From an uncultured Acidimicrobiales bacterium (GTDB lineage: Bacteria > Actinomycetota > Geothermincolia > Fen-727 > Anoxymicrobiaceae): a DNA stretch of 64,000 bases. Made by a program: the position numbers and the translations under genes. Of the stretch, positions 21,788-61,082 are shown piece by piece. Under the pieces are notes generated by a model, which saw nothing but the letters and a program-made list of their open reading frames with translations, ran no database searches and was not told the origin of the DNA. The number at the start of each line of letters is the position of its first letter. Position 1 is the first letter of the stretch. The stretch is taken from positions 825 to 64,824 of the forward strand of contig CAZEJS010000001.1 of assembly GCA_964512645.1 (NCBI GenBank). The letters run 5' to 3'.

Positions 21788-21788
21788 G

Positions 21789-39659: not shown

Positions 39660-39712
39660 CTCTACCTCCTTGCCATCTCCCTGTTCATACGTCCGTCGTA
39701 TGCGCCATCGCG

Positions 39713-40543: not shown

Positions 40544-40573
40544 CCGGTCCCTGGAGCGAGGCTCCGACAGCAT

Positions 40574-41626: not shown

Positions 41627-41718
41627 AGGGCCCGGCCCCTTCCCGCCTTCTGACCACTCTGCATCACCAGATGTCTGCTATGCGCAAAGGGGTCTGACCC
41701 CGACTGCGATCAGTGCCC

Positions 41719-43324: not shown

Positions 43325-43360
43325 CTGCTCCTCCTTTCAATGTCCGCTCCTTCGAACGCT

Positions 43361-44713: not shown

Positions 44714-44819
44714 CTCCCTACTCCTTTCGTCCCATCTTTACCGGTCCTATTCGTTTTGCGTACCATCCCGCTCGCCCTCCCCCCCGTGGGGGAGGGCCGG
44801 CGGGGGTGTTCCATATCGC

Positions 44820-47006
44820 TTACGCGAGCATCGGGTCCATCGTGAGCGCGGGGTGCTCCTTCTCCGTCAGGAACGGCAGGATCTCCTCCTCGGTCACCCC
44901 GACGGTCTCGTCGGCGATCTTGTCGATGAAGTCGGGAGTTCCCAGCTCCTCGGCCCGCCTGTCGAGCTGCTCGCGCAGTGTCTCCTTGAGCTCCTTCGGC
45001 ATCCAGACGATGCGGTGGAAGCCGCCGTCGGCGCTGATGAACTTCTTGGAGGTTATGTAAACTTTGCCGATGCCGACGAATCCCGGGGTGACGTTCCCTC
45101 CGCCAACCGAGCCGGCGAGCGTCGAGAAGGACATGCCGCATGGAGTCTCCTTGCCGGTGAACTCCCTGTTGACGATCATGACCCCGTTGCATATCGGCAG
45201 GAACGCCACAATGCACTCGAAGCAGCCGCACGACGTCATCGGATCTTCCATCATCGTGTAGGCGTTGAACTTGTCCAGCTTCTGCCCGGAGTTATCGTAA
45301 ACGAACTTGTTGACGTTGACCCACTGGCCCTTGTCCTCGTCGATAGCGTCGCCCTTGGGGATGGGCTGGTTGGGTCCGGTGGGGTCGATCTCGTAGGCCG
45401 CCTTGCAGTCGAGCCAGTTGTAGGCTCCGCAGAGCCCGAGGCGCTCGGGCGTGACCACGCAAACGTGGGTGGGCGCGAACGACTGGCAAAGCGTGCACGA
45501 GTAGTAGATGTCCGTGGTCTCGTCGGTCATGCCGGCGGTGCGCTCGTCGCGCTCCGCGTACTTGGCGCGCGCATTGGCCAGCCACTCTTTGCACGGAGCC
45601 TCCTCTGTGTAGAGAGTGACCTCGACCTTGTCGACTATCGCCGGGAACTCGCCCAGCAGCTTGGCGTGGAGTATCTCGCCGTAGTCCTTGATCTTGAAGC
45701 CCTTGGACTGGGCCTTCTTGCTGATGCGCGTCCAGACGATATCGCGCTGGCCCATGTGCCAGATGCCCTCGGCCCCGTTGATGAGGTGGTGGCACTGGCG
45801 CTCGAGGATCGACTCGAAATCCTCCTGCATCTTCCGGCCGGCCACGTGGATCACGATTCCCAGCGGAAGGGCCGCGCCGGCCTCGATGTCGTCGATCTCC
45901 GGCCCGACCACGGTGATCTTGCCGTCCTCGACCTCGTCCATCTCCTTCATCTCCACGAACTCGAACGCCGGAGTGATGTTGCCTCCGAACTGGCAGTACA
46001 TGTCCTCCTTGCGGATGCGCTCGCCCTCGAAGGCCGGCCCGTAGGCCATGGGGATGGGGACCTTGGTGACCTGTATCTTCAGACCGCGAACCTCGACCGC
46101 CTTCTGGACGATCTGGTCGTGGGGTATGTTGGAAACCACGTGCTCGTAGGTGCAGACTCCCGTTGGCAGGATCTCCGGTATGGGCGTGTCGGCGATCGTC
46201 GGGAAGCCGTAGTTGATAGCGCCCGCGGCGTTCGCGTACCACTCGTCGGTGACCTCGCCCAGCGCCATGACAAACGCGAATATCCGGTTCTTGTTGTAGA
46301 GCAGGACCTTGCGGTAGTCGCCCGGCTGCGCGCCCCCGAAGCTCATCGCCGCGCGGGCGGCGAACCCCAGCGAGTACACCGCGGAGCCTATCTCGCGCCC
46401 GTAGGGCACGATGCGGGTCTCCCAGCCGAGCTGGACCCCGATGCTGTCGAGCTGCTCGGCCACCGTGGTGCCGTTGAAATTGCCGCTCGTCCAGACGTAG
46501 AGGTTCTTCTCCTGGAGTTCCTTGACTATGCTCTCGGCGGTCTGGGGATCGGGCGCCGAACCTGCGAGCGCGCAGAAACCGGGCGCCGATCCGTCGACGA
46601 ACTCGACGCCCCTCTCGCGCATTATCACGTCGTCGGCGGCGCCCAGCCATATCCCGTCGACCGGGTTGGGGCCGTCGATGTACTTGATGGCCTCTTCGAG
46701 CTCCTCCATGAACAGGGTCGCCATCCCCGCGTCCAGCCCCGGCCCCAGGTAAGGGGTCCAGAGGCCGTCCCTGGGGAGAGGGGGGATCAGGTCCTCGGCG
46801 ATCTTCATGACCTTGCCGAAATCACCGAGTTTCTCGACCTTCTCGCCGGTCATGGCGTAGATTATCGGGAGGTAGTAGGCGGTGTTGGGAAACGCCACCT
46901 CCTGGTTCTCCCCGTGCTTCTGCAGGGCCTCGTCGATCCGCGCAGCTACCCTGTCGTGGATGGCGTGCGCTCCTCTGATCGCGGCACTTAGAATTATCTT
47001 GGACAT
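44820..47006 (-). CDS. acsB: Acetyl-CoA synthase (A-cluster subunit)
   Basis: 728 aa, collinear with Moorella AcsB along its whole length (AYYLP..., CTLCQSFAPTHVCVVTPERLGLCGA, MTSCGCFECIVAFLP, FIDKIADETVG). RBS AAGGAGGAG. Confidence 0.95.
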   Translation of the reverse strand: MSKIILSAAIRGAHAIHDRVAARIDEALQKHGENQEVAFPNTAYYLPIIYAMTGEKVEKLGDFGKVMKIAEDLIPPLPRDGLWTPYLGPGLDAGMATLFMEELEEAIKYIDGPNPVDGIWLGAADDVIMRERGVEFVDGSAPGFCALAGSAPDPQTAESIVKELQEKNLYVWTSGNFNGTTVAEQLDSIGVQLGWETRIVPYGREIGSAVYSLGFAARAAMSFGGAQPGDYRKVLLYNKNRIFAFVMALGEVTDEWYANAAGAINYGFPTIADTPIPEILPTGVCTYEHVVSNIPHDQIVQKAVEVRGLKIQVTKVPIPMAYGPAFEGERIRKEDMYCQFGGNITPAFEFVEMKEMDEVEDGKITVVGPEIDDIEAGAALPLGIVIHVAGRKMQEDFESILERQCHHLINGAEGIWHMGQRDIVWTRISKKAQSKGFKIKDYGEILHAKLLGEFPAIVDKVEVTLYTEEAPCKEWLANARAKYAERDERTAGMTDETTDIYYSCTLCQSFAPTHVCVVTPERLGLCGAYNWLDCKAAYEIDPTGPNQPIPKGDAIDEDKGQWVNVNKFVYDNSGQKLDKFNAYTMMEDPMTSCGCFECIVAFLPICNGVMIVNREFTGKETPCGMSFSTLAGSVGGGNVTPGFVGIGKVYITSKKFISADGGFHRIVWMPKELKETLREQLDRRAEELGTPDFIDKIADETVGVTEEEILPFLTEKEHPALTMDPMLA

Positions 47007-47045
47007 GTAAACTCCTCCTTTTCTTTCTCGTCAGTGCCTCAGAGG

Positions 47046-48998
47046 CTATTCGATCGACAGTTCGCGTCTCATGGCCATGTCGTAAAGCACGCGTTCGCGC
47101 TTGCCCAGTATTCCAAGCGCATCCCGCTTCATGTCGATAAGGCTCAGCAGCTTCCCGACCATCTTGTCGGGGTCGGGCTCGTAGTGCCAGGAGTTGCCGT
47201 ACTGCTCGAACATGCCCTCGAACAGGTAATCGGTCAGCTCGCTGCTGCCGGTGGTCGGCCAGGTGGTCCCGAACACGACCGCCGCGCCCGAAGCCACGAA
47301 GTACTGCCCGATGGATATCGCCTTCTCGCTCATCCACTCGGGCGCGCACCCCACGGCGGGCAGGTCCGATATGTCGTCGCCCAGGCCACCCTCGTTGACC
47401 ATCGCGGTAAGAGCCACCAGGATGCGGCTGTTGTCCACGCAGGAACCGACGTGGAGCACCGGAGGTATGCCCACGGCCTCACAGATTTCCCGAAGGCCCT
47501 GGGGCATTACGCCCTCCTTGTACGCGATCTCCGGCGTCATGAGTCCGGTCTTGGCCACCGCCTGCGCCGCGCAGCCGGTCATGACCACCAGGCAGCCGTT
47601 GGCCACCAGCTCACTGACAACCCTCACGTGCACGGCGTCATGCGCGACCCTGGGGTTGTTGCACCCTACCACACCCACGACCCCGCGTATGCGGCCGTCG
47701 ATGATCCCGTCGTTGAGGGGCCTGTAGGAGGCGCGGAACTTGCCGCCCAGCATGTAGTTGATGTACTCGTGATCGTACCCGGCGATGAAATCGCTGGTCA
47801 CGTCGGGGATGTCCACCTTTCCCCTGTTGGGGAAATTGTCGATGGCCATCTCGACGATCTTCTTGGCGCTGGAGAGCCCTGTTTCCTCGTGGAACTCGAT
47901 GTGCTCCGCCAGCGGCATCCTGCCCTTGGGGCTGGTGGTGATGACCTTGGTATGGAAGCACTTGGACAGTTCCCCGATCGCCTGGTAGATGCACTGCACG
48001 TCCACCACCATGGCGTCGATCGCGCCGGTCATGATGGCAAGCTCCTGCTGGAGGACGTTCCCGGCCACGGGAATGCCGTGCCTGGAGAGGATCTCGTTGG
48101 CCGTGCAGCAGATCCCGGCGATGTTGATGCCCTTGGCGCCCTTCTCCTCGGCCCTCTTGAGCAGACTCCCGTCCTGGGAGGCCAGGAGTATCATCTCCGA
48201 GAGGAGAGGCTCGTGGCCGTGGACGATTATGTTCACCTGGTCCTCGGAGAGCACCCCCAGGTTGATCTTCGCCTGGAGGGGCGTCGGCGTCCCGAACATG
48301 ATGTCCTGGAGCTCCGTCCCTATCATCGAGCCGCCCCAGCCGTCAGCCAGCGCCGTGCGGGAGCCCTGGCGCATGATGTTCTCCATCTCCTGGTCGACCC
48401 CGATATGGGTACGGTGCATGACCTCGACGACCTCGCGGTCGATTCCGCGGGGGAATATGCCCAGCTTCCTCCATATCTCCTTGCGCTTCTCGGGGGCGCG
48501 CAACCCGAAAGCGAGTTCGCCCTCCTGCTGGCCGAACATCGCCAGGCACTTCTCTCCGACCTCGAGCGCTATCTCCTCCACCGGCCGGTCGCCGACCTCG
48601 ACGTCCAGGTCCGCCGCCACTTCCAGCAGCTTGATCCGGTCCTTGATCTGGTACCCCTCGGCTTCTCCCTTCGCGGCCATGATGAACGTGTGCGCCACCG
48701 CCCTGCCGTGGTCGGAGTGGGCCGCCGCGCCGGCGGCGATCATCCGGCAGAAGTTGCGCGCCGCCACCACACCCGCTGTCGCGCCGCAGATTCCCCGCTT
48801 CTCCTCTTCGCCCTCCTTCTTGGGGGGCGTGAGCCTGCATGGCCCCATAGCGCAGTTCTTGCAGCAGATACCGCTCGCGCCGATCGTGCAGACCTTCATC
48901 GACTCCGTCCGGCTGAAGGCGGTTGACCGTTTTTCCGCCTCAGCCTTCTTGAGCATCTCGACCGACGCTTCACAGGCCGTCCTTTCTTCAAAATCCAA
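47046..48998 (-). CDS. acsA: Carbon monoxide dehydrogenase catalytic subunit (Ni-Fe C-cluster)
   Basis: 650 aa. B/D-cluster N-terminus GICCKNCAMGPCR...GICGATAGVVAARN and C-cluster motifs (GICCTANE, HVGSCVDNSR). The ORF starts on TTG. Confidence 0.9.
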   Translation of the reverse strand: MDFEERTACEASVEMLKKAEAEKRSTAFSRTESMKVCTIGASGICCKNCAMGPCRLTPPKKEGEEEKRGICGATAGVVAARNFCRMIAAGAAAHSDHGRAVAHTFIMAAKGEAEGYQIKDRIKLLEVAADLDVEVGDRPVEEIALEVGEKCLAMFGQQEGELAFGLRAPEKRKEIWRKLGIFPRGIDREVVEVMHRTHIGVDQEMENIMRQGSRTALADGWGGSMIGTELQDIMFGTPTPLQAKINLGVLSEDQVNIIVHGHEPLLSEMILLASQDGSLLKRAEEKGAKGINIAGICCTANEILSRHGIPVAGNVLQQELAIMTGAIDAMVVDVQCIYQAIGELSKCFHTKVITTSPKGRMPLAEHIEFHEETGLSSAKKIVEMAIDNFPNRGKVDIPDVTSDFIAGYDHEYINYMLGGKFRASYRPLNDGIIDGRIRGVVGVVGCNNPRVAHDAVHVRVVSELVANGCLVVMTGCAAQAVAKTGLMTPEIAYKEGVMPQGLREICEAVGIPPVLHVGSCVDNSRILVALTAMVNEGGLGDDISDLPAVGCAPEWMSEKAISIGQYFVASGAAVVFGTTWPTTGSSELTDYLFEGMFEQYGNSWHYEPDPDKMVGKLLSLIDMKRDALGILGKRERVLYDMAMRRELSIE

Positions 48999-49046
48999 CT
49001 GTCCTCAACTCCTCGCTCTTCGTGAGCTTCCGTGGCCTCGTCGGGC

Positions 49047-49985
49047 CTATCCCTTCAGTTCGTCGATGACCTTCCTTACCGTCCTGATGGCATCCGGGTG
49101 CCTCATGATGATCACATCGGCGCCGGCCACGAGAAGGGTGGTCGCGGTGAGTATCTCCCACATGACCCCGCGCTTCTTCTCGTCGCCCCACTGCGGCTCG
49201 TCGGCCGCGGGGGCCTTCGCTTCCTTCGCCTTCCACGCCTCGGGACCGACGTCCGCCAGAAGCGGCATCTGGGTCATGCCGTCGTCCTGGCGCAGTGCGG
49301 CGATCTTGAACCGCTCCATGATGGAGTAGGTGTACTCCAGGCCGTAACCGAGGGCGCCGGTGGTGGGATCGACGAGGATCTTCCCTACGTCCACGCCGAG
49401 GTTGGAGAGAAGGATGTTCAGCTGCTTCGCCAGGTTGACGTCGATGGGCGACTTGGCCGCCACCGTCTGGTTGTATCCGAGCGCCGCCGCTCCGATGGTC
49501 TTGAAGTTGTCCTCCTTCGCCGGCCCCATGACCACGTTCAGCCCTTCGCAGGCCGTCGCCACCGCCTTGAGCACCTCTCCGTCCTTCTCGACGTCCTCCG
49601 AACCGTAGACTATCACCGGTATGCTCACGGCTTCGGCGACCGCCCTGGTGGTCTGCGCGGCGTCGGCGGCGGGCCTGTCGGCGCCCTTGGGATCGGTGCT
49701 CTGCAGACGGAGCGCTATAACGTCGGCCCCCCACTCGTCCTGAGCCTTCTTCGCCCAGGCGACGGGGTCCGACAGGACGTCCTTGAGGGGCTCGGTGACC
49801 GCTTCGGGCCACTCCTCGGGGTTGTCGTCGTAAACCTCGACGGCGATGAGCGGCCGCCTCGGCATGTCGCCTTCCCAGAGATAGAACGGCAGGATGTTCT
49901 CCCCGCCCGCCTTCACATCACCGGTCCCCAGCACGACCTCGCGTATTCTCGAGTCGCTGGTTTCCTTGATCGCCTCAAACGCCAT
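49047..49985 (-). CDS. acsD: Corrinoid iron-sulfur protein small subunit
   Basis: 312 aa TIM-barrel CFeSP small subunit, adjacent to acsA/acsB/acsC. Confidence 0.85.
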   Translation of the reverse strand: MAFEAIKETSDSRIREVVLGTGDVKAGGENILPFYLWEGDMPRRPLIAVEVYDDNPEEWPEAVTEPLKDVLSDPVAWAKKAQDEWGADVIALRLQSTDPKGADRPAADAAQTTRAVAEAVSIPVIVYGSEDVEKDGEVLKAVATACEGLNVVMGPAKEDNFKTIGAAALGYNQTVAAKSPIDVNLAKQLNILLSNLGVDVGKILVDPTTGALGYGLEYTYSIMERFKIAALRQDDGMTQMPLLADVGPEAWKAKEAKAPAADEPQWGDEKKRGVMWEILTATTLLVAGADVIIMRHPDAIRTVRKVIDELKG

Positions 49986-50065
49986 GTGATTCCACTTCCT
50001 TTCTACGGTTCAACCACCGTGCGCCGCATTGATATATGTCAAACACGCTCGGCGCGCGCGCCTCG

Positions 50066-50974
50066 TCAGTCCCCCGCCTGCATCTTGCAGGCGGTCAGCG
50101 CGTTCTTGAGCAGCATCATGTTGGTTACCGCCCCGACCCCGCCGGGGACGGGGGTGATCGCCCTGGCCTTCTCCTTCACGTTGTCGAAGTCCACGTCTCC
50201 GACCGTCCTTGTCTTCGGCTTGCCCTTGTCGTTCAAAACGGGGTTGCCCTCGTCGTCGAGCACCTTGACCCGGTTGATGCCGACGTCGATGACCACGGCG
50301 CCCTCCTTCACCAGGTCGGCGGTGACCAGCCCCGCCTTGCCGGCGGCGACTATCAGGATGTCCGCGCCGGTGGTGTGCCTGGCCAGGTTGCCCGCCTGGG
50401 AAGTGAAGATATGGGTAACCGTGACGGTTGCGTTGCGGTTCAGGGCGAGCATCGCGACCGGCTTTCCGACTATGTTCGAGTGCCCGACGACGACAATCTC
50501 GGCGCCCTCGAACTCGACGCCCACCCTGTCCAGCAGCTCGATGCATGCCGACGGGGTTGCCGGGGCCAGCGTGGGCTCGCCCAGCAGCAGGCGTCCCATG
50601 TTGGCCGGGTGGAAGCAGTCGATGTCCTTGTCCTCGCGGATGTTGCGGATTACCGCCGAGTCGCTGATGTGCTCGGGGTACGGGCGGAGCGGCAATATCC
50701 CGCTGACGGCGGGGTCCCCGTTCAATTCCTTGACGATATCGATGACCTGCTCTTCGGTGGTCTCCGCGGGCAGCGTCTTCTCGATGTAGTTGAAGCCTAC
50801 CAGCTCGCAGTTCTTCTCCACCTGGCCCCGGTACATCTTCGACCCGAAGTCGTCGCCCACCAGCAGCGTCGCTATCCCGGGGGCGAGCCCTTTGGCCTTG
50901 AGGCTCTCGGTCTCGGACACTATCTCCGCTTTGATCTCGTCCGCTATGGCATTCCCGTCTATGATCTCCGCCAT
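50066..50974 (-). CDS. folD: Bifunctional methylene-THF dehydrogenase / methenyl-THF cyclohydrolase
   Basis: 302 aa (ATPSACIELLDRVGVEFEGAEIVVVGHSNIVGKP..., TPVPGGVGAVT). Confidence 0.9.
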   Translation of the reverse strand: MAEIIDGNAIADEIKAEIVSETESLKAKGLAPGIATLLVGDDFGSKMYRGQVEKNCELVGFNYIEKTLPAETTEEQVIDIVKELNGDPAVSGILPLRPYPEHISDSAVIRNIREDKDIDCFHPANMGRLLLGEPTLAPATPSACIELLDRVGVEFEGAEIVVVGHSNIVGKPVAMLALNRNATVTVTHIFTSQAGNLARHTTGADILIVAAGKAGLVTADLVKEGAVVIDVGINRVKVLDDEGNPVLNDKGKPKTRTVGDVDFDNVKEKARAITPVPGGVGAVTNMMLLKNALTACKMQAGD

Positions 50975-50984
50975 TCCATACCTC

Positions 50985-51623
50985 CTAGCCGAGTTTCTCG
51001 TAGGTCACTCTGACAACCCTGTCCTTGAGCTCGAGCGCCCGTGCAAGTATATCTTGAACGCCCGTCCATTTCTCCTCGTTGAAAGCGCCGTCCTTGATGG
51101 TCCCGAGGTTGATCTTCACGTTGAGGGCGGCGCACTGCGCGCACGCCTCCGCCAGCAGGGCTGCCACACCCGCGTCGCTCACCGCGTTGACGTTTCCTAT
51201 CTCCGCCGCGACCTCCGATAGTTTCGCGACCTCCAGGCACTGCTCCACGATGGCGTAGGGGACCATGGTGGCTTCTTTGCAGGCCGCCTGGACGGCTTCG
51301 TCCCTCTTCCGCTTCTCCTCCTCGGTTCCGCGCGGCATCTTGAAAGCTTTCGCCAGGACGGCGTACACCTCGGTGTCCTCCTGCACCAGCTCCTGGAGCC
51401 GGGCGCGCACCCTCTCCGAATCCGCGAGCAGCTCCTCGATGCGGTCCTGGACGCCTGAGTACTTCTCCTTGCCCACGGTCAGGTTCGCCACCATGCCAAC
51501 CAGGGCCGCCCCGACGGCCGCGGCAAGCGCGCTGGCCGAGCCGCCCCCGGGCTCCGGCGCGCCGGAAGCCAGCCTGTCGAGGTAGTCCACCATCGGACCT
51601 TTCACGTACATCCTGCCCTTCAC
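50985..51623 (-). CDS. fchA: Methenyl-THF cyclohydrolase (formiminotransferase-cyclodeaminase family). ORF starts on GTG 51623; ATGs at 51611 and 51593 are alternatives
   Basis: MVDYLDRLASGAPEPGGGSASALAAAVGAALVGMV matches the cyclodeaminase-domain N-terminus. Confidence 0.85.
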   Translation of the reverse strand: MKGRMYVKGPMVDYLDRLASGAPEPGGGSASALAAAVGAALVGMVANLTVGKEKYSGVQDRIEELLADSERVRARLQELVQEDTEVYAVLAKAFKMPRGTEEEKRKRDEAVQAACKEATMVPYAIVEQCLEVAKLSEVAAEIGNVNAVSDAGVAALLAEACAQCAALNVKINLGTIKDGAFNEEKWTGVQDILARALELKDRVVRVTYEKLG

Positions 51624-51661
51624 CCCCTGTAGCGCCCCCGTTCGAGGCGGCAGTCAGCTCT

Positions 51662-52426
51662 TCAACGTTCCAGCAAGCCGTCCATCATCCGCCGTACCGC
51701 CTGGAGGGCGGCCGAATCGGCGCCGATTTCCACCAGCGGTCTCCCCAGCTCGTCCAGCTCGGACACCTCCGGGTCGTCCGGCACTATCCCCGCCAGGTCG
51801 ATGTCGAGTCCCGCCACCTCCGCTGCCACCGCCTCCGACAGCTCGCCCCTCACCCGCGAGAGCACCAGGCGGTAGCGCCCGACACCGATGTCCATCTCCC
51901 GGGCGAGGTCCCTTATCCTCATCGCCGTGGCCAGCCCCCTGTGCGATGGGTCGCTCACTATGAACAGCACATCGACACCGCGGGTGGTGCGCCGGCTGAG
52001 GTGCTCCATTCCCGCCTCGTTATCAATTACCAGATACTGGTAGTTCTTGTTGAGCCTTTCCAGGAACACCCTGAGCATGTTGTTGATCGCGCAGTAACAC
52101 CCCGGGCCTTCGGGCCTGCCCATGCTTATGAGGTCGACGTCCGGCGTCTCGATGAGCGCCTGTTCGATCTGCATTTCCAGGATGTCCTGCTTGGCCATTC
52201 CGGCCGGTATCTGGCCCTTCCGGGTCTTCTCGCTCATCTCTTCGCGGACGGACCCTACCGTACTCTCCAGGCTGAGGCCCAGGGCGAGGTCGAGGTTGCT
52301 GTTGGAGTCCGCGTCGACGGCGAGCACCGGCCCGAGCCCTTTTTCGACCAGGTACTTGACGACCAGGGAAGCGAAGGTGGTCTTGCCCACTCCGCCCTTG
52401 CCGCTGACGGCGAGCACCGTGGTCAA
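51662..52426 (-). CDS. cooC: CODH nickel-insertion accessory ATPase (CooC/AcsF). TTG start overlaps the RACo stop; GTG 52417 is an alternative
   Basis: P-loop AVSGKGGVGKTT, MinD/ParA-type ATPase, 254 aa. Confidence 0.85.
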   Translation of the reverse strand: MTTVLAVSGKGGVGKTTFASLVVKYLVEKGLGPVLAVDADSNSNLDLALGLSLESTVGSVREEMSEKTRKGQIPAGMAKQDILEMQIEQALIETPDVDLISMGRPEGPGCYCAINNMLRVFLERLNKNYQYLVIDNEAGMEHLSRRTTRGVDVLFIVSDPSHRGLATAMRIRDLAREMDIGVGRYRLVLSRVRGELSEAVAAEVAGLDIDLAGIVPDDPEVSELDELGRPLVEIGADSAALQAVRRMMDGLLER

Positions 52427-54399
52427 GCGGTCTCACCCCCGCCGTCCCGGCCCAGCTTCGCGCGCTCTCGCGACTCGGCCAGCCTCTCCATGACCGTCGG
52501 GAACTCCCGCGTATGGGTGTGCGGGAAGAACATCGCCGCCATGTACTGGTCCATGAACTTGGAGCTGGTCGAGAGCTCCAGGTAAGTCATCATCTTGGCT
52601 ATGCGGTCGGCCTCGCCTATCAGGCTCTTGGAGAGGGCCATCAGGTAGCTGCCGAGCAGCGACCCGTTCCCAACGAACTTGATCTTCTCGACGTCGACGT
52701 CCGGGAGCAGCCCGATGATTATCGCCTTGTCTATCTCGAGGTAGCGCCCGAAGGCCCCGGCTATGAGGATCTCCTCCACCATGTCGATGGTCATGCCGAC
52801 TTCCTCCAGGAGGATGTTGATGCCGGCGAAGATCGCGGCCTTGGCCCTCATCAGGTTGTCGATGTCCACGTCGGTTATGACGATGTCACGGTTGGTGCCG
52901 CTCTCGTCGGCCCACGCGAGCACGTACTCCCCGCCAGAATCGCTCCCACGGACCCTGGGCGTGTCCAGCTCGGTGTCGATCTTGCCCCTCTCGTCCATGA
53001 TGCCGGTGAGGAACAGCTCGGCCAGGGTGTCGATCAGCCCGGAGCCGCAGATGCCGATAGGCCGGCGGTTCCCTACGGTGATGATCATCGGCTCGAGCGT
53101 GACCTCGTTGATCCGCACCTGCTCGATCGCCCCCCTGGTGGCCCGCATCCCGTGCTTGACCCCCGCGCCCTCGAACGCCGGGCCGGCGGAGCACGAGCAG
53201 GTCATCAGCCAGTCCTTGTTGCCGAGGGCCATCTCGCCGTTGGTGCCGATGTCGATATAGAGAGTCACTTTCTCGGAATTGAACATCCCCGAGGCCAGCA
53301 CCCCGGCGACTATGTCCCCTCCAACGTAAGAGGCCACGCACGGGGTGCACCGCATGTAGACACCGGAGGCGATGCGGATGCCGATGTTGGAGGCCTTGAT
53401 CCACGGGAAGAACTGGGCCACCGGGATATAGGGGTCAACCCTGATGTAGCGGGGGTCCAGCCCCAGCAGGAGGTGGATCATGGTGGTGTTGCCCGAGATC
53501 ACCAGGTCGGTAATGCTGCAGAACTGCGTGTTCGTCTTCTCCACGACCTGCTGGATCAGGTTCCAGATGGTCTGAACCGCCGCCGACTGGAGCTTCGCCA
53601 GGCCGGTGGAACGCGTGGAATATATTATCCGGCTGATGATGTCCTCGCCGTAAGAGATCTGGCCGTTGTAGTCCGACGCCTCCGCGGTAACCTCGCCGGT
53701 CTGGAGGTCCACGAGCTGGACCGAGACCGTGGTGGTCCCCAGGTCCACTGCGAGCGCCGCCTGGCGCGGGGACGTGTCTCCCTTCTCGATTCGCACCGCC
53801 CTGAGCTCCTGGCCGCGGTCGAGCACCGTCACGGTGACGTCGAAGCTCGAGGCCCTGATGAGCCCGGGCAGCGCCTGGAGCATCGGGAAATCGATAACGA
53901 CGTCCTTCAGGCCGGCCAGGCGAGACAGCTCCCGCTTGATCCTCTCGGAGTCGCTGAGGTTATCTTCCAGTGTCGGCGGATCCATCACCAGGTGGAACTT
54001 GGTGGTGGGAGGGTTGAGCTCCCACTGGGGGAGCCTCTCCGCCCAGTCCTCCGCGGAGAGCGTGTACCCCTTGAGCGGTATCGGGGGACGGCGGGTGAGG
54101 GCGCTCTTGTCGCCCAACTGGGTCTCTATGGGCACCCGGACGTCGGCGTCGCTCTCGATGGTCGCGGAGCAGGCAAGCACGTAACCGCGCTTCACCTCCT
54201 CCTCGGAGAGCTTGGCCGCGAGCTTCTGCTTGACCTCGCCCTTCTCGACGATGACCCTGCACTTGCCGCAGTAGCCCTCGCCCCCGCAGGAAGCGTTGAT
54301 GTGCACGTCCGCCTTCATCGCCGCCCGGAGCAGGTTCTCGCCCTTGTCGACTTCTATGCACCTGTTCTCCGGGTAGAAGCAGACCCTCACTTTTTCCAT
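52423..54399 (-). CDS. Corrinoid-FeSP reductive activase (RACo-like, COG3894): [2Fe-2S] ferredoxin domain + ASKHA ATPase domain
   Basis: ORF 52423..54444. ATG 54399 (MEKVRVCFYPENRC...) is preceded by GGGAGGACGG. Plant-type ferredoxin cysteines (CGGEGYCGKCRV) then an actin-like ATPase core (AVDLGTTTV...). Located inside the acs operon. Confidence 0.8.
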   Translation of the reverse strand: MEKVRVCFYPENRCIEVDKGENLLRAAMKADVHINASCGGEGYCGKCRVIVEKGEVKQKLAAKLSEEEVKRGYVLACSATIESDADVRVPIETQLGDKSALTRRPPIPLKGYTLSAEDWAERLPQWELNPPTTKFHLVMDPPTLEDNLSDSERIKRELSRLAGLKDVVIDFPMLQALPGLIRASSFDVTVTVLDRGQELRAVRIEKGDTSPRQAALAVDLGTTTVSVQLVDLQTGEVTAEASDYNGQISYGEDIISRIIYSTRSTGLAKLQSAAVQTIWNLIQQVVEKTNTQFCSITDLVISGNTTMIHLLLGLDPRYIRVDPYIPVAQFFPWIKASNIGIRIASGVYMRCTPCVASYVGGDIVAGVLASGMFNSEKVTLYIDIGTNGEMALGNKDWLMTCSCSAGPAFEGAGVKHGMRATRGAIEQVRINEVTLEPMIITVGNRRPIGICGSGLIDTLAELFLTGIMDERGKIDTELDTPRVRGSDSGGEYVLAWADESGTNRDIVITDVDIDNLMRAKAAIFAGINILLEEVGMTIDMVEEILIAGAFGRYLEIDKAIIIGLLPDVDVEKIKFVGNGSLLGSYLMALSKSLIGEADRIAKMMTYLELSTSSKFMDQYMAAMFFPHTHTREFPTVMERLAESRERAKLGRDGGGETA

Positions 54400-54552
54400 A
54401 CTGTCACGTCCGTCCTCCCGGCCCGCAGGTGCGCCACCCCGCAACTCGGCAGGTGGCGCACCCTGGCAACGCTCTTCTTCGAAGGCCCCTGCGCCACCAT
54501 GGTCGCGGCCCGATGGCGCATGGCCGCCTGCATCGGTAAGCCTGCGTACCGC

Positions 54553-56268
54553 CTAGAACAGGCCGACAACGCGGCCGCCCTCGACCAGGTCCACCTTGTT
54601 CCCGGCGGGCTCGCTGGGAAGCCCGGGCATGGTCTTCATCTCACCGCAGAGCGGGTAGAGGAAGCCCGCGCCCACCGAGGGCCTGATCTCCCTGATGGGC
54701 AGGCGCCACCCCGTCGGACGCCCCTTCAGGTTGGGATCGTGCGAGAGCGAGAGGTGGGTCTTGGCCATGCACAGGGGCAGGTTGTCGTACCCGGCCTCGG
54801 TGAAACGCTTGATGTCGGCTTCGGCGACCGGCGAGTAATCCACCCCGTCCGCCCCGTATATCTTGGTTGCCACGGTCTCGATCTTCTCCTTGATGGAGCT
54901 GCCGAGGTCGTACAGGTACTTGAAATCTTTGGGCATGTCGCACGCCTTGACGATCGCTTCGGCGGCTTCCTTGCCACCCTCGCCACCCTTCGCCCAGACC
55001 TCGATGGGCTCGCAGAAGTCGGCCCCGGCCTTCAAGGCCAGGTCCTGCACCATCGCGACCTCCTTGTCGGTGTCGGTCGTGCGGCGGTTGACGGTGACCA
55101 CGACCGGCAGCCCGAAGAGCTTCATGTTCTCGATGTGCTTCACCAGGTTCTGGCAGCCGTCCTCGAGGGCGGGCATGTTCTCGGCGGCCTGGAGCTTCTC
55201 GTCGATCTTCTTGCCGGGCTTGGCCTCGAACGCGCCGCCGTGCATCTTGAGCGCCCTCACCGTGCTGGTGATGACCACGCAGTCGGGGGTGATGCCGTAC
55301 TTCTCCAGCACCCTGACCTTGATGTCCATCATCTTCTCGGCGCCGCAGTCCGCCCCGAACCCGCTCTCGGTGAACACGTAGTCGCACAGCTTCACCGCTA
55401 TGAGGTCCTCGACCACCGAGTTATTGCCCTGGGCTATGTTGGCGAACGGGCCGCCGTGCATGAAGCAGGCGTTGCCCTCGAGGGTCTGGATGAGGTTGGG
55501 CATGATCGCGTCCTTCAGCAGGACGGCCATGGAGCCCGCGCACTTGAGGTCGGAGGTGGTCACCGGCTTGCCGTCGTACGTCTGGGCGACGACGATGCGT
55601 GACAGCCTCTCCTTCAGGTCGTCGAGGTTCTCGGCAAGCGCCAGGATGGCCATGACCTCGGAGGCCACGGTGATGTCGAAGCCGGTCTGGCGAGGATAGC
55701 CGTTCTGCTTGCCCCCCAGCCCTACCACGATGTCGCGCAGCGCGCGGTCGCTTATATCGACCACCCTCCGCCAGGAGATCGTCATCGGGTCTATGTTCAA
55801 GGGGTTACCCAGCAGAATGCTGGTGTCTATATACGCCGCGCAGAGGTTGTTCGCCGCGCCTACCGCGTGTATGTCGCCGGTGAAATGCAGGTTCAGGTCC
55901 TCCATGGGCACCACCTGGCTGTATCCGCCCCCGGCGGCGCCTCCCTTGATCCCGAACACCGGGCCCATGCTCGGCTCCCGGATGTTGATGATCGAGCTCC
56001 TCCCGATCTTGTTCATTGCCTCCGTGAGCCCGATCGAGGTGACGGTCTTACCCTCGCCCAGGGGCGTAGGAGTTATCGCCGTGACATCGATGTACTTGGC
56101 GTTCGGGCGGTCTTTCAACCGCTCGATGACGTCGAGGTGGACCTTCGCCTTGTAGTTGCCGTAAAGCTCGAGGTCGTCCTCCTCCAGCCCGATCTTTTTG
56201 GCGATCTCGACAATCGGCTTCATCTTCGCAGCCTGCGCGATTTCGAGGTCACTTGGAACTGCTGCCAT
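54553..56268 (-). CDS. fhs: Formate--tetrahydrofolate ligase
   Basis: 571 aa (SDLEIAQAAKMKPIVEIA, PLGEGKTVTSIGL P-loop). RBS AAGGAGGGG. Confidence 0.95.
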   Translation of the reverse strand: MAAVPSDLEIAQAAKMKPIVEIAKKIGLEEDDLELYGNYKAKVHLDVIERLKDRPNAKYIDVTAITPTPLGEGKTVTSIGLTEAMNKIGRSSIINIREPSMGPVFGIKGGAAGGGYSQVVPMEDLNLHFTGDIHAVGAANNLCAAYIDTSILLGNPLNIDPMTISWRRVVDISDRALRDIVVGLGGKQNGYPRQTGFDITVASEVMAILALAENLDDLKERLSRIVVAQTYDGKPVTTSDLKCAGSMAVLLKDAIMPNLIQTLEGNACFMHGGPFANIAQGNNSVVEDLIAVKLCDYVFTESGFGADCGAEKMMDIKVRVLEKYGITPDCVVITSTVRALKMHGGAFEAKPGKKIDEKLQAAENMPALEDGCQNLVKHIENMKLFGLPVVVTVNRRTTDTDKEVAMVQDLALKAGADFCEPIEVWAKGGEGGKEAAEAIVKACDMPKDFKYLYDLGSSIKEKIETVATKIYGADGVDYSPVAEADIKRFTEAGYDNLPLCMAKTHLSLSHDPNLKGRPTGWRLPIREIRPSVGAGFLYPLCGEMKTMPGLPSEPAGNKVDLVEGGRVVGLF

Positions 56269-56740: not shown

Positions 56741-58150
56741 ATGGCAGAAGAAGGGAAGTTCGACGTAGTGGTCATCGGGGCCGGTCCAGGCGGGTACCCC
56801 GCCGCGATCAGGGCGGCGCAGCGCGGCGCCAGGGTAGCCATCGTCGAGAAGGAGAAGGTGGGAGGCACATGCCTCAACTGGGGATGCATTCCCACCAAGA
56901 CCCTGCTCGCTTCCACCGAGCTCATCTCCCAGGCAAGGGAGGCCGAGAAGTTCGGCGTCAAGATCACCGGCGTAGAGGCGGACTGGCCGGCGATAATCGA
57001 GCGCAAGCAGAGCGTGACCGACACCCTCGTCGGCGGGATACTCCAGCTGCTCAAGGCGAACGGCATCGAGCTCGTCAACGGCAGCGGACGCATCGGCGCC
57101 GACAGGAGCGTCGTGGTCAAGACCCCCGAGGGGGAGCGGGTCCTGAGCGCGGACAAGATCATCATCGCCACCGGTTCCGACCCCGCGGAGCTGCCTGCGT
57201 TCGACTTCTCGCAGGCGGCGGTCATGACCTCGACCGACGCCCTGGCGCTCGACCACGTCCCGAAAAGCCTCATCATCGTCGGGAGCGGCGTCATCGGCAG
57301 CGAGTTCGCCTGCATCTTCTCCACCCTCGGCACGGAGATAGTCATGCTCGAGCTGATGGACCGAATGCTGCCGACCGAGGACAGCCGGGTCGCAAAACAG
57401 ATGAAGAGCACCTTCCGCAAACAGGGCATAGACGTCCGCACCAAGACGACGGTGGAGGAGGTCCTGGAGTACCGGCCCGACGGCATCCGGGTCAAGCTCT
57501 CCACCGGTGACGAACTGGAGGCGGAGAAGCTGCTCGTCTCCATCGGGAGGAAGTTCAACTCCGCCGGTCTCGGCCTGGACGAACTCGGGGTCGAAACCGA
57601 CGAGCGCGGCCGCATCGTTGTTGACCAGACGATGGAGACCACCGTTGACGGCATATACGGCGTGGGAGACGTGGTTGGCGGCATCCTGCTTGCCCACACC
57701 GCGACGTTCGAAGGCCTGGTGGCGGCGGAAAACGCCACCGGGGGCAACGCCACGATGAACTACCACGTGGTGCCCGCGTGTATTTTCACCACGCCGGAGA
57801 TCGGCAGCGTCGGCATCAACTCCGACAAGGCGGCCGAACAGGGCATCGACGTCAATATCAGCAGGTTCTCCTTCGGAGCCCTGGGCAAGGCCCTGGCCAT
57901 GGGAGAGGACTACGGGTTCGTCCAACTGGTCATAGACGCCAAGACCGACAGGGTCCTGGGCGCCCAGATCATGGGGCCGCACGCGTCGGACCTGGTGCAC
58001 GAGGTGGCCGTCGCGATGCACATGGGCGCTACCGCAGGTGACATCGCCGGGACCATACACGCCCACCCTTCGCTCCCCGAGGCGATCATGGAAGCGGCGG
58101 AGGCGGCCCACGGCAAGGCGATACACGTGGCGCCCCCCAGGAAGAAGTAA
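56741..58150 (+). CDS. lpdA: Dihydrolipoyl dehydrogenase (E3)
   Basis: 469 aa (GGTCLNWGCIPTK redox disulfide, HAHPSLPE dimer-interface His-Pro-Glu). Divergent from fhs. Confidence 0.9.
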   Translation: MAEEGKFDVVVIGAGPGGYPAAIRAAQRGARVAIVEKEKVGGTCLNWGCIPTKTLLASTELISQAREAEKFGVKITGVEADWPAIIERKQSVTDTLVGGILQLLKANGIELVNGSGRIGADRSVVVKTPEGERVLSADKIIIATGSDPAELPAFDFSQAAVMTSTDALALDHVPKSLIIVGSGVIGSEFACIFSTLGTEIVMLELMDRMLPTEDSRVAKQMKSTFRKQGIDVRTKTTVEEVLEYRPDGIRVKLSTGDELEAEKLLVSIGRKFNSAGLGLDELGVETDERGRIVVDQTMETTVDGIYGVGDVVGGILLAHTATFEGLVAAENATGGNATMNYHVVPACIFTTPEIGSVGINSDKAAEQGIDVNISRFSFGALGKALAMGEDYGFVQLVIDAKTDRVLGAQIMGPHASDLVHEVAVAMHMGATAGDIAGTIHAHPSLPEAIMEAAEAAHGKAIHVAPPRKK

Positions 58151-58213: not shown

Positions 58214-58939
58214 TCAGGAAGCGGTAAGGCCGTCTTCGCCGGTCCCGCCGTCGCCGTCCCGGGCCGCCCCGGAGGTCCGGGAGGAAGCCTCGGCGAACTC
58301 CACGGTCAGTTCGGACACCATCTCTTCCCGCCCGGCGAGGAAGTGGTCCGTCGAGGGCAGTACCATCGTGTTCGCTGAGTCGCGCTCGCCGGCGGCGCCG
58401 GTGAAAGCCCGGAGGGATTCGAGCGGGCAGAGGCGATCATCGGCGCCCGCTATGTAATGCCGCTCGACGGTCGAGGCGGCGATGGCTGGCGCCGCGCTTC
58501 GCCAGTCGTAGAGCGCCAGGGGCGGGGAAACGGCGACGCAACATGCGGCTTCAAGCCCCTCCCCCAGGGCCAGCAACGCCATCCATGCGCCGAACGACCA
58601 CCCGGCAACGGCCAACTTCGACGGGTCGACCTCCCCCAGTCCCCGCACGAACCCGCACGCGGCGGCCACGTCGCACGGCTCATCGAGGCCGTCGGTAAAG
58701 GCGCCGGAACTCCTCCCGACGCCGGCGAAGTCGAAGCGCAGGACCGCGAATCCCGCCCTTGACGCCCTGGTCTCCATCGTCTCCAGCAGGCCGACATCCA
58801 TGGAACCCCCGCCCGCGGGGTGGGGGTGGCACAGGACCAGACTCCTCCCGCCGGCACACCTGTCCGGCAGCGCCAGCAGTCCCCGGAGCTCCACCGCTCC
58901 GCCGGGTCTCGGGGATTCGAACCTCACCTCATAACGCAT
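58214..58939 (-). CDS. Alpha/beta-hydrolase fold protein (dienelactone-hydrolase-like)
   Basis: 241 aa with nucleophile elbow GWSFG. Catalytic Asp/His candidates are present near the C-terminus. Confidence 0.6.
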   Translation of the reverse strand: MRYEVRFESPRPGGAVELRGLLALPDRCAGGRSLVLCHPHPAGGGSMDVGLLETMETRASRAGFAVLRFDFAGVGRSSGAFTDGLDEPCDVAAACGFVRGLGEVDPSKLAVAGWSFGAWMALLALGEGLEAACCVAVSPPLALYDWRSAAPAIAASTVERHYIAGADDRLCPLESLRAFTGAAGERDSANTMVLPSTDHFLAGREEMVSELTVEFAEASSRTSGAARDGDGGTGEDGLTAS

Positions 58940-58997: not shown

Positions 58998-59405
58998 TCA
59001 GAACTTCACCTTGATGAGCTGCAGGGGGCAGGCGTCCACGCAGAAACCGCACAGGATGCAGCGGTCCCTGTCGAGCACCAGTTCCCAGTCCGGCGCCCCG
59101 ACCTTGAGCGCCCGGGGCTGGCAGACGGCGGTGCAGGCGCCGCACGAGATACAGAGCTTGTCGTCGAGCTCGATGTCCCTTATGGCATCCTCGACCTGGA
59201 CCCCCAGCTCCTGGAGGTGCCGCACCCCCGCCTTGATGCGCGCCGCCGGCCCCTCCAGCTCGACCAGCATGCGCCCTATCTCGCCCTCGCTTATCTCCGC
59301 GCGCAGGATGTTGGTGATCACGTCGTAGTCCCTGACCATCATCGCCACCACCGGCCTCTCCACGACCTCGGGAGGGAATGTCAGCACGAGCCTCTTCTTC
59401 GCCAT
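58998..59405 (-). CDS. NIL-domain / 2x[4Fe-4S] ferredoxin protein (homocysteine-biosynthesis partner, MA1822-like)
   Basis: 135 aa. N-terminal NIL-like region, then CISCGACTAVCQP and CILCGFCVDACP. Start abuts the stop of the DUF39 gene. Confidence 0.75.
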   Translation of the reverse strand: MAKKRLVLTFPPEVVERPVVAMMVRDYDVITNILRAEISEGEIGRMLVELEGPAARIKAGVRHLQELGVQVEDAIRDIELDDKLCISCGACTAVCQPRALKVGAPDWELVLDRDRCILCGFCVDACPLQLIKVKF

Positions 59406-60572
59406 CTACTCCCCCTCCCCGGTCCGAATCTCCAGCGGGAGCGTAACCCCACCGGACGGGAGCGGCTCCACAGGCGCGGTCAGCAGGAACGCGCCTTCCC
59501 GGATCCAGGCCTTCAGGTTCGCCGCTATCTGCCGGGCCACCTTGTAGCTGGAGAGCGGCGCCGTGGGGACTTTCCTGTCCCCCAGCCGCACCGACCCGCT
59601 CCGGAGTTCCGCGTAACTGACCCGCCGCAGCGGCTCGCGAGCCCTCGTCGGCTGGCTGTAGTCGAAGACCGAGGTCTCGATTTCGGAATCGGCCACCCCG
59701 GTAAACGCCGCCATCTCTTCGTCGAGCACCGGTATGGGGATTCCCACCCCGACGTAAAGCGTCACGCCGTAGCGGTGAAACCTGGCACCTCTGATGAACC
59801 TGGAATCCATCTGCTTGAGGTCGCCGATGAGGGCGAGGCTCGCGGCGGGGCCAACCGGGGTGCCCCCCGGCGAACGCTCCACGCTTCCCTTGTGCTGGGT
59901 CCCCTGCCAGGCCACGTACCCCGCGGTTCCGCCGAGGAATATCCTGGTGCCGACACCGACGGCCCTGTACAGCGGGTCGTTGAGCAGAGGGCTCATCTGG
60001 CCCGCGCTGCAGTAGGTGACGCTGCCGAAGTTCGGCAGCAGGACTCCCATGTAAGTGTAGATCGTCCGCTGTGAGCCGTTGGTAGCGGAGGCGTAGTTCT
60101 GGTAGGCGTTGCGCGGATTGAACAGGTAAGCCTGGTTCACGGTATCTTTGCTCACCAGGGTCTCTATCTCCTTGCGGGGATAGCAATCCGTGCCGTAGGC
60201 AGAGGCCCGCAGCCTTATGCTCTTTCCCTCCACCAGGTCCTGTATCACGTGCGCGCCGCCGTAGGCGATCCCCTCGGTCTCGGAGCTGGCGGTGGCCCCT
60301 ACGTACGCGTCGACGGCGGCGAGGTCGGCGCAGACGGGGACGTCGTTCAGCCAGACCCTCGACATCTTGATCGGGGGCTCGCTGTGGCCGAAGTTGATGA
60401 ACGCCCCCGAGGAACACATGGGCCCGAACGTCCCGGTAGTCACGACGTCCACCCGGCGCGCGGCCTTCCGTGCGCCCTCGGACTTCACGATCTCCGTCAT
60501 CTCGTCGGCGGTGACGACGACGGCCTCGCCTTTCCTGATCCTCTCGTTTATCTCCTCGTACGTCTTGACCAC
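59406..60572 (-). CDS. DUF39 / COG1900 family protein (sulfide-dependent homocysteine biosynthesis, MA1821-like)
   Basis: ORF 59406..60773. Probable GTG start at 60572, 6 nt after the strong SD GGAGGGAGGTGGG, gives (M)VKTYEEINERIRKGEAVVVTADEM, the canonical COG1900 N-terminus. The upstream 60 codons are junk-like. Confidence 0.75.
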   Translation of the reverse strand: MVKTYEEINERIRKGEAVVVTADEMTEIVKSEGARKAARRVDVVTTGTFGPMCSSGAFINFGHSEPPIKMSRVWLNDVPVCADLAAVDAYVGATASSETEGIAYGGAHVIQDLVEGKSIRLRASAYGTDCYPRKEIETLVSKDTVNQAYLFNPRNAYQNYASATNGSQRTIYTYMGVLLPNFGSVTYCSAGQMSPLLNDPLYRAVGVGTRIFLGGTAGYVAWQGTQHKGSVERSPGGTPVGPAASLALIGDLKQMDSRFIRGARFHRYGVTLYVGVGIPIPVLDEEMAAFTGVADSEIETSVFDYSQPTRAREPLRRVSYAELRSGSVRLGDRKVPTAPLSSYKVARQIAANLKAWIREGAFLLTAPVEPLPSGGVTLPLEIRTGEGE

Positions 60573-60669
60573 GAGCCCACCTCCCTCCGGCGGTGTTGAT
60601 GTGTCCATTCTAGCCGAACCGGCCCGGCCGCCGGAGGCTCCCGGGTACGACTCGGCGGAGGGCCCGCAT

Positions 60670-60724
60670 AAAAAAGGCCTTCCGTCCTCATGGGGACGAA
60701 AGGCACGCTTCCGTGGTACCACCC
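60670..60724 (-). promoter_or_regulatory. Leader element upstream of the DUF39 gene: T-box-like sequence (GGGUGGUACCACGG) immediately followed by an intrinsic terminator
   Basis: Minus strand: GAAGUGGGGUGGUACCACGGAAGCGUG-CCUUUCGUCC-CCAUGA-GGACGGAAGG-CC-UUUUUU. The stem is 10 bp with one G-U, U6 tract, about 100 nt before the GTG start. 12/13 match to the T-box consensus GGGUGGNACCGCG. A candidate TTGACA-17-TAGGTT promoter lies at 60997..61025. Confidence 0.4.
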
Positions 60725-61082
60725 CACTTCGCCCGCGCCTCGCGGCGCCGGGCCTCACCGGGTACGCCCCCACGTGCAGGGAATATACCCCGGCCCTGTT
60801 ACGGGGGCGTCCGCCCGGTTCTACTCGCCCGGCGGCGCCGGGTTTTCTTCCGGGAGCTCGGGGGCCATGTTCGAGGAGCGCCCGCGGCGCCGGCTCCCAC
60901 CGTCCCGGCTCGCTTCGGCCCGGCTTCCACCTCTACTCTTCCCCTTCAAAGCCTTTCACTGGTGTTCAGTTGTAAAGCGTCACTGCGTTCACCATGAACC
61001 TACCCATGCCCGGTGGATCTGTCAAGGAAAGCCCCGACAGCGCACGGAGGTAGGCGGGCCCGGCGGTCGAATTCCAGAACAG

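Follow-up and report, generated by a model that had tools for sequence, protein, structure and literature searches.

The DNA considered here is a 64-kb stretch of contig CAZEJS010000001.1 (64,000 nucleotides, hereafter the window), which was annotated throughout with Pfam and NCBIfam and which probably comes from an anaerobic Wood-Ljungdahl Actinomycetota bacterium near Ca. Anoxymicrobiaceae. The subject of this analysis is a pair of abutting minus-strand genes, encoding a DUF39 protein and a small NIL-ferredoxin, together with the leader RNA that precedes them. The features of the locus are as follows.

58998..59405, minus strand: NIL + 2x[4Fe-4S] ferredoxin of 135 aa (PF09383 + Fer4), the putative electron-supply and probable methionine-sensing subunit
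59406..60572, minus strand: DUF39/COG1900a protein of 388 aa (PF01837) with a GTG start and no CBS domains, the putative catalytic subunit of an L-aspartate-semialdehyde sulfurtransferase
60677..60704, minus strand: intrinsic terminator hairpin with U-run, the predicted T-box expression platform (terminator scan and minimum-free-energy fold)
60689..60958, minus strand: T-box leader RNA with the predicted Stem I specifier AUG (Met) (Rfam RF00230)

A first-pass annotation, made from the sequence alone, had described the two open reading frames as an archaeal-type gene pair for sulfide-dependent homocysteine biosynthesis. Both frames lie on the minus strand at exactly the positions given there, and the DUF39 N-terminus that it quoted, VKTYEEINERIRKGEAVVVTADEM, is present. 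The match of the larger protein to PF01837 (HcyBio, formerly DUF39) covers profile positions 1-349 of 349 with an E-value of 3.4e-152 in Pfam, while its 135-aa partner matches PF09383 (NIL) with an E-value of 5.4e-17 along with Fer4 families. The DUF39 and NIL assignments were thereby both confirmed with hidden Markov models, at a level well past anything due to chance. No CBS domain was found by Pfam in the DUF39 protein of the window. This absence is a mark of the bacterial form of the family, whose members are mostly about 388 aa long, and is no ground for excluding the protein from it.

The DUF39 reading frame is open from 60773, and the GTG at 60572 was chosen as the best start because GGAGGGAGG (60588..60580) precedes it, because the resulting length of 388 aa is that of most homologues, and because the N-terminus thus obtained, VVKTYEEINERI, agrees in the alignment with the homologue consensus MAKTYEEINEKI. 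Longer DUF39 gene calls of 450-455 aa were rejected, as they pass through the T-box terminator and most homologues have 388 aa. Automatic gene calls in the window (59406..60773, minus strand) and in relatives (L001, L003, P0001) nevertheless give a 450-aa protein from an upstream GTG, which is almost certainly an annotation artefact.

DUF39 is a very large family. A search for homologues gave at least 8000 matches, and a scan of one genome per species confirmed at least 599 stretches as relatives. Loci were compared in the best 80 of these, each at most 64% identical to the window protein, and closer relatives were taken from a metagenome scan. The best 80 loci come from Bacillota, Actinomycetota, Bacteroidota, Synergistia, Planctomycetia, Spirochaetota, Chloroflexota and delta-proteobacteria among the bacteria, and from Thermoplasmata, Methanomassiliicoccales, Methanosarcinales and Hadarchaeota among the archaea. 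Among the matches listed, the closest named relatives, at about 80% identity, belong to Ca. Anoxymicrobium japonicum and Ca. Anoxymicrobiaceae (Actinomycetota, Ca. Geothermincolia). These proteins already carry the label 'homocysteine biosynthesis protein' at NCBI or 'L-aspartate semialdehyde sulfurtransferase' at JGI. The placement of the host rests on them, and the pair itself recurs with 100% identity on seven short metagenome contigs.

The DUF39 protein of the window is 55% identical (E 4e-157) to a protein from Methanolobus (Methanosarcinaceae) in which DUF39 is joined to two CBS domains; downstream of the Methanolobus gene lie a ferredoxin gene and then a COG2122-like gene. Two near-universal cysteines, Cys54 (essential) and Cys131 of MA1821, define the COG1900a homocysteine subfamily (PMC12068725). 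In the window protein, Cys53 (GPMCSSG) and Cys130 (GTDCYP) are invariant across a 34-sequence alignment, and they align with C54 and C131 of the Methanolobus orthologue. The cysteines bear on the alternative of a COG1900 paralogue producing another thiol from another aldehyde, for example a ComF/MMP16-type coenzyme-M synthase or an enzyme for another thiol cofactor. MMP16/ComF (COG1900d) belongs to the same fold family and shares analogous aldehyde-to-thiol chemistry and an Fe-S electron input, and the sulfurtransferase acting on L-aspartate semialdehyde (L-ASST) may itself moonlight in coenzyme M synthesis (PMC12068725). The window protein also gives a partial match to TIGR03287 (MMP16, methanogenesis marker 16) with an E-value of 4e-39. 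However, this match reaches only 134 bits against a cut-off of 364 bits. Furthermore, the ferredoxin domain of MMP16 sits inside its COG1900 domain, with the cysteines elsewhere, whereas the COG1900 domain of the window protein has no such insertion and carries its cysteines at the COG1900a rather than the COG1900d positions. With no coenzyme-M-using metabolism evident within the 64-kb window, and with a methionine-specific T-box and operon fusions to MetH, MetF and MesB genes in relatives (see below), a paralogue of this kind is very improbable.

The partner protein carries two CX2CX2CX3C Fer4 motifs, CISCGACTAVCQP and CILCGFCVDACP, and its ATG abuts the TAG stop of the DUF39 gene with no gap. 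This arrangement is widespread: among the best 80 loci, 61 of the 72 testable cases, from many phyla, have a NIL-ferredoxin homologue directly 3' of DUF39 and in the same orientation, and a homologue of the COG2122 protein encoded in the window lies within 2.5 kb of DUF39 in 42 of 65 testable cases. The delta-proteobacterial loci of the comparison set have no adjoining NIL-ferredoxin. Three single proteins of 467-563 aa (P0089, P0101 and P0102) fuse DUF39 to 4Fe-4S ferredoxin domains and so provide a Rosetta-stone link between the two subunits.

Directly upstream of DUF39, RF00230 is matched over the full-length model with 58.5 bits and an E-value of 2.3e-11. Since this score, like the 59-83 bits of the relatives, falls below the Rfam gathering score of 93, the element was tested further for canonical features, uniqueness, position and covariation. 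The T-box sequence GGGGUGGUACCACGG is found at 60725..60711. The terminator scan gave a hairpin of 11 pairs followed by CTTTTTTATG, and the same hairpin appears in the minimum-free-energy fold. The antiterminator, whose helix shares UUCGUCCCC in the cmscan alignment, has a 3' arm that overlaps the 5' arm of this hairpin, and the two structures are mutually exclusive. The leader of DUF39 is the sole T-box in the 64-kb window. Rfam matches occupy the same position before DUF39 in 11 other loci, four of them from species genomes (two Coriobacteriia metagenome-assembled genomes (MAGs), 'Actinobacteria bacterium UBA7524' and Ca. Solincola tengchongensis; E 1e-13 to 1e-16) and seven from metagenome relatives (E 3e-10 to 2e-15). 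Of 31 close relatives, 21 carry the T-box sequence upstream of DUF39 in a strict motif search. When 12 Stem I regions are aligned, 12 of the 27 predicted pairs show compensatory changes.

These results also speak to the possibility that the match arose by chance or marks a decayed element, with no tRNA regulation of the operon. Besides the score under the gathering threshold, this alternative could draw on several close relatives that have no match or an intergenic region too short for a T-box, and on locus L098. The variant leader of L098 (2638..2899) has a C in place of the purine after AUG (GAACAUGC) and a UGGC bulge in place of UGGU; this leader may represent a T-box in decay or one with a changed specificity. 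Set against the E-value over the full model, the canonical T-box sequence with its overlapping terminator and antiterminator, the recurrence at the same position in loci that include different Actinomycetota classes, and the covarying Stem I, a chance or decayed element is hard to credit. In a further variant, L053 (Ca. Solincola tengchongensis; 198..820), about 370 nt of extra leader lie between the T-box (specifier loop GAAGAUGG) and the DUF39 start and might contain a second regulatory element.

The amino acid specificity of the leader can be read from its specifier loop, GAACAUGG (60872..60865), the flanking helices of which covary and in which the predicted specifier AUG occupies 60868..60866. 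The ATG is invariant across the 12 leaders and is preceded by C, by no base at all (L122: GAAAUGG) or by G (L053: GAAGAUGG). Because the preceding base varies, the conserved specifier triplet is taken to be AUG and not CAU. The UGGU bulge is compatible with the discriminator A73 of tRNA-Met; no tRNA genes were found in the 64-kb window. In the window leader, AUG takes up positions 2-4 of the specifier bulge, counted from its 3' end, with a purine next, which is the preferred '+0' specifier frame of TBDB (PMC7778990; PMC7583486). A histidine (CAU) register was rejected on both grounds, that is, the variable preceding base and the +0 frame of AUG. Likewise, a helix sequestering the Shine-Dalgarno sequence between terminator and start codon was rejected, its stability being no better than that of shuffled sequence (z = -0.07). 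Most of the T-boxes reported from Actinobacteria act on translation (PMC7583486). The element ahead of the DUF39/NIL-ferredoxin pair, a transcription-terminating, long-Stem-I, Met-specific T-box, appears to be new; the literature searched contained no paper naming a T-box together with DUF39 or COG1900, which is weak negative evidence. As a predicted sensor of tRNA-Met, the T-box would constitute independent evidence, from regulation, for a methionine-pathway role of the pair.

The methionine connection recurs in relatives, in some cases through a different class of RNA. In one Clostridia MAG (L031), a SAM-I riboswitch (1691..1802) lies ahead of the DUF39 operon, and in another (L017) tandem SAM-I riboswitches (2899..3003 and 3165..3267) do. 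The SAM-I riboswitches of the Clostridia loci thus seem to fill the role held by the T-box in the Actinomycetota loci. From the T-box and SAM-I riboswitches together, it follows that the DUF39 operon would belong to the methionine regulon in at least two phyla. Gene content points the same way. In 'Actinobacteria bacterium UBA7524' (L039, 6515..12518), a Met T-box is followed by DUF39, NIL-ferredoxin, MetH, MetV and MetF. The MetH of this operon has homocysteine S-methyltransferase, pterin-binding and B12-binding domains and no match to the reactivation domain. Loci L050 and L063 show the arrangement of L039 as far as their sequence reaches. In L113 (604..3443, all on one strand), DUF39 and NIL-ferredoxin are followed by a MesB-like gene whose product is 42% identical to that of 40574..41626 in the window. 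Judged by gene order, the operon fusions of L039 and L113 would connect the pair straight to the final step of methionine synthesis.

On this evidence, the pair is very probably a bacterial L-aspartate-semialdehyde sulfurtransferase that makes homocysteine from aspartate semialdehyde and sulfide, placed behind a tRNA-Met T-box. The identity of the pair rests on the full-length PF01837 match, PF09383 with Fer4, the 55% identity to the Methanosarcinaceae locus, the invariant Cys53 and Cys130, and the names of the homologues. Its role in methionine synthesis rests on gene order, the Met T-boxes, the SAM-I riboswitches, the operon fusions and the published genetics and biochemistry of homologues (PMC5764234; PMC12068725). 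The homocysteine-pair proposal of the first-pass annotation is therefore supported by the domain models, the identity and the Cys54/Cys131 equivalents, the order DUF39, NIL-ferredoxin and COG2122 in other loci, and the putative Met T-box. Several points nevertheless weigh against it. The T-box scores are all sub-threshold, and the T-box is missing in about a third of the close relatives. The COG2122 protein of the window falls below its NCBIfam cut-off and is unlinked, its gene lying 27 kb from the pair. No DUF39 structure was found in the PDB by sequence and profile search. Finally, in Methanosarcina acetivorans the pathway is redundant with another homocysteine route (PMC12068725).

Comparison with characterized systems places the pair among known relatives. 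The L-ASST of M. acetivorans consists of the same two subunits in the same gene order (MA1821, DUF39/COG1900a; MA1822, NIL-ferredoxin) (PMC12068725). The equivalents of Cys54 and Cys131 are kept, the COG1900 domain shares about 55% identity with the Methanosarcinaceae orthologue, and a probable COG2122 gene is also present in the genome (MA1715 in M. acetivorans). The window system differs in that its DUF39 protein lacks the C-terminal CBS (S-adenosylmethionine-sensing) domains and has a T-box leader instead, in that COG2122 is unlinked, and in its bacterial host. Among bacteria, mutant fitness in Desulfovibrio vulgaris Miyazaki F demonstrated a requirement of DvMF_1464, DvMF_0262 and DvMF_0044 for methionine synthesis and showed that homoserine is no intermediate, and the pathway was proposed for the Dehalococcoides operon DET0921:DET0919 (PMC5764234). 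The window shares with both a bacterial, CBS-less DUF39 protein, a NIL/ferredoxin protein and a probable COG2122 protein. However, the three Desulfovibrio genes are scattered, whereas DUF39 and NIL-ferredoxin of the window abut behind a T-box. The leader itself resembles the Met T-boxes of Bacillota, such as that of Staphylococcus aureus metICFE-mdh, which is reported to couple tRNA-Met to transcription attenuation of de novo methionine genes (PMC3771891; PMC7913692). Unlike in S. aureus, the downstream genes here are those of the DUF39 pathway rather than of trans-sulfuration and MetE, and the host is an actinomycetote.

Three further genes of the window adjoin the pair or belong to its pathway.

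30934..31686, minus strand: probable COG2122/UPF0280 (ApbE-like) protein, the putative third genetically defined pathway component (NCBIfam)
56741..58150, plus strand: dihydrolipoyl dehydrogenase, convergent to the pair (Pfam/NCBIfam)
58214..58939, minus strand: alpha/beta hydrolase of 241 aa with a GWSFG nucleophile elbow (weak Pfam alpha/beta-hydrolase matches)

The COG2122/UPF0280 gene, which the first-pass annotation had listed as a family co-distributed with COG1900 in methanogens, is present on the minus strand at the coordinates it gave. Its product matches all four PRK04334/UPF0280 models of NCBIfam, the best being NF003323 with an E-value of 4.8e-72 and 242 bits against a cut-off of 271 bits; no Pfam match was found for it. 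The protein is 28-47% identical to the product of the gene directly after NIL-ferredoxin in 46 other loci. In these loci COG2122 is thus the third gene, a position held by the hydrolase in the lineage of the window. Of the 23 testable relatives whose DUF39 identity is at least 66%, 21 have a hydrolase homologue after NIL-ferredoxin on the same strand, and the hydrolase is only 38-61% identical among these relatives. A terminator scan found no terminator-like site between NIL-ferredoxin and the hydrolase. From its position and conservation, the hydrolase is probably the third operon gene in this lineage. The closest solved structures (2i3d, 3trd and 2fuk) are all uncharacterised structural-genomics hydrolases. 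It could, as a speculation, be a new accessory enzyme, for example one recycling the homocysteine thiolactone formed as homocysteine rises during methionine starvation. The broader proposal that the operon has been rewired, with a Met T-box in place of the archaeal CBS/SAM control and a COG2945-type hydrolase in the place of COG2122, seems to us doubtful.

The hydrolase was also considered as a MetX-type homoserine acyltransferase and rejected on account of its 241 aa, the lack of a match to a MetX model and the uncharacterised hydrolases that are its nearest structures. This bears on a further alternative, in which the pair does make homocysteine and yet serves as a redundant or conditional route beside an O-acyl- or O-phospho-homoserine pathway encoded elsewhere, so that there would be no bypass of the kind proposed in the first-pass annotation. 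Deletion of L-ASST in M. acetivorans gave no methionine phenotype because of such redundancy (PMC12068725), a T-box implies that expression is conditional and not constitutive, and the sequence inspected amounts to 64 kb of the genome. On the other hand, neither metA, metX, metY, metB nor metC was seen within the 64-kb window in the Pfam and NCBIfam annotation, the hydrolase is not MetX-like by NCBIfam, and the DUF39 pathway is the main route in D. vulgaris (PMC5764234). A redundant or conditional route is the weightiest of the alternatives considered and has an appreciable probability, though one below even.

The window also contains a candidate for the enzyme that would use the homocysteine, within a Wood-Ljungdahl gene cluster.

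38778..56268, minus strand: Wood-Ljungdahl cluster, the proposed methyl source (Pfam + NCBIfam)
38778..39659, minus strand: acsE, at one end of the cluster
40574..41626, minus strand: MesB-like 'core MetE' methionine synthase candidate of 350 aa, between metF and lipA/acsE (predicted fold and zinc motif)
54553..56268, minus strand: fhs, at the other end of the cluster

The genes of this cluster run in the order acsE, lipA, mesB-like, metF, metV, acsC, acsB, CODH, acsD, folD, fchA, cooC, RACo and fhs. The protein encoded by 40574..41626 has no match, even as a profile, in Pfam (including PF01717), NCBIfam or PDB sequences. JGI and NCBI call its homologues 'methionine synthase (II)', and among the matches listed the closest Dehalococcoidia homologue is 45% identical. 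An AlphaFold model built from 28 homologues reached a pLDDT of 94 and a pTM of 0.92, and the top 26 Foldseek matches of this model are cobalamin-independent methionine synthases (MetE), with E-values down to 8e-11, followed by uroporphyrinogen decarboxylases. H225, C227, D246 and C321 are invariant in the alignment. An HCDC zinc signature was reported for characterised MesB, a family found only in Wood-Ljungdahl organisms and often clustered with Wood-Ljungdahl genes, and MesB proteins are recognised by a MetE-type catalytic barrel, the zinc ligands H-C-(D/E)-C, a length of about 340-390 aa and an organism with AcsC/AcsD (PMC7857596). The window protein shows the predicted barrel fold, the zinc ligands and the size, and acsC and acsD lie in the same cluster. 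It therefore resembles the Wood-Ljungdahl-clustered MesB in its approximately 350 aa, its single-barrel MetE-like predicted fold and its HCDC signature (PMC7857596; PMC7005905), and differs from known MesB in lacking a detectable PF01717 match.

The first-pass annotation had noted a core-MetE gene next to acsE about 18 kb from the pair. The names of the homologues, the MetE-like fold and the HCDC motif support this assignment, and both genes lie at that distance, on the minus strand, inside the Wood-Ljungdahl cluster. The distance of 18 kb is by itself no evidence that the pair and MesB/acsE are coupled. The coupling of MesB to the Wood-Ljungdahl corrinoid protein is a published prediction (PMC7857596), and MesB with the corrinoid iron-sulfur protein CoFeSP has been described as a short-cut from the Wood-Ljungdahl pathway to methionine (PMC7857596; PMC7005905). 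In Dehalococcoides, the homocysteine pathway occurs together with a core methionine synthase of the MesB type that draws on CoFeSP (PMC7857596). Unlike D. mccartyi, the window organism also encodes metF and acsE, and methyl-THF would therefore be available to it as well.

Combining the locus with what is published on its homologues, a mechanism can be proposed. When methionine is low, the CAU anticodon of uncharged tRNA-Met would pair with the AUG specifier of Stem I and its free NCCA end with the UGGU bulge, as the sequence and its comparison suggest. Binding of the tRNA would stabilise the antiterminator against the terminator (60704..60677), and the polymerase would read into the operon, probably including the hydrolase. 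By analogy with the published homologues, the cysteines of the DUF39 protein would move sulfide-derived sulfur to the aldehyde carbon of L-aspartate semialdehyde, and the 2x[4Fe-4S] clusters of the NIL-ferredoxin would supply two or four electrons for conversion of the thio-intermediate to homocysteine. Homoserine would be no intermediate. On the same analogy, the NIL domain probably mediates methionine feedback and the unlinked COG2122 protein probably helps in sulfur activation. The MesB-like enzyme would then probably methylate homocysteine with a methyl group from the CoFeSP AcsCD, as context and homologues indicate; AcsCD, judging from gene context, would be loaded with methyl through the fhs/folD/metFV/acsE branch of the same 18-kb cluster.

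Every element of the first-pass interpretation was already known: published work covers the enzyme family and its partners as well as the connection with Wood-Ljungdahl organisms, and the Pfam, NCBI and JGI annotation already names the function. The description of the pair as archaeal-type and known from methanogens, given in the first-pass annotation, falls short of the published record. Beyond the methanogens in which the pair has been described, the pathway is proven by genetics in Desulfovibrio, proposed in Dehalococcoides and found in at least 599 species across many phyla; being pan-anaerobe, it is misleadingly called archaeal. What is apparently new is modest, namely the instance in Ca. 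Geothermincolia-like Actinomycetota, the T-box leader and the lineage-specific third gene. An uncultured Actinomycetota lineage of the Wood-Ljungdahl type thus probably makes homocysteine by a homoserine-independent DUF39 route. Given this probable route and a MesB-like synthase with its corrinoid protein 18 kb away, such MAGs should not be scored as methionine auxotrophs. More broadly, Met T-boxes, SAM riboswitches and fusions with MetH, MetF and MesB genes offer a cheap, regulon-based confirmation of the pathway role in bacteria without genetics, and the Met T-box could serve as a natural reporter in tests of the pathway.

The remaining genes of the window have a broader range of functions. 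Upstream of the pair lie divergent genes for an MptA/B-like mannosyltransferase and an Fe-alcohol dehydrogenase, and the other genes concern branched-chain amino acids, serine, gatCAB, ligA and formate dehydrogenase. A branched-chain cluster on the minus strand (5415..23075) contains two LeuA/CimA-like synthases, two aconitase-type LeuC/LeuD pairs and two Iso_dh dehydrogenases, along with ilvE, ilvC, ilvB, ilvD, serA and a class-V aminotransferase. The duplicated functions may belong to a route that leads to isoleucine by way of citramalate. At 34381..37185 (plus strand), the catalytic subunit of a formate dehydrogenase is split into two in-frame open reading frames. A SECIS_3 match (35539..35597; 44.5 bits, E 6e-7, below the gathering score of 63) has the in-frame stop of the first (35542..35544) at its 5' end, and the two frames are read as a predicted selenocysteine-containing FdhA. 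This FdhA is flanked by NuoE/NuoF-like and MvhD/FlpD-like genes.

Genes related to lipoyl proteins are also found near the C1 genes of the window. The Wood-Ljungdahl cluster itself contains a lipoyl synthase gene (39713..40573, minus strand), flanked by the mesB-like gene and acsE. The dihydrolipoyl dehydrogenase gene (56741..58150, plus strand) borders the cluster, and a gene for a glycine-cleavage H protein (24333..24770, plus strand) is found 15 kb from it. Together, these genes hint at a link of lipoyl proteins to the C1 branch, possibly through glycine cleavage or the reductive glycine pathway.

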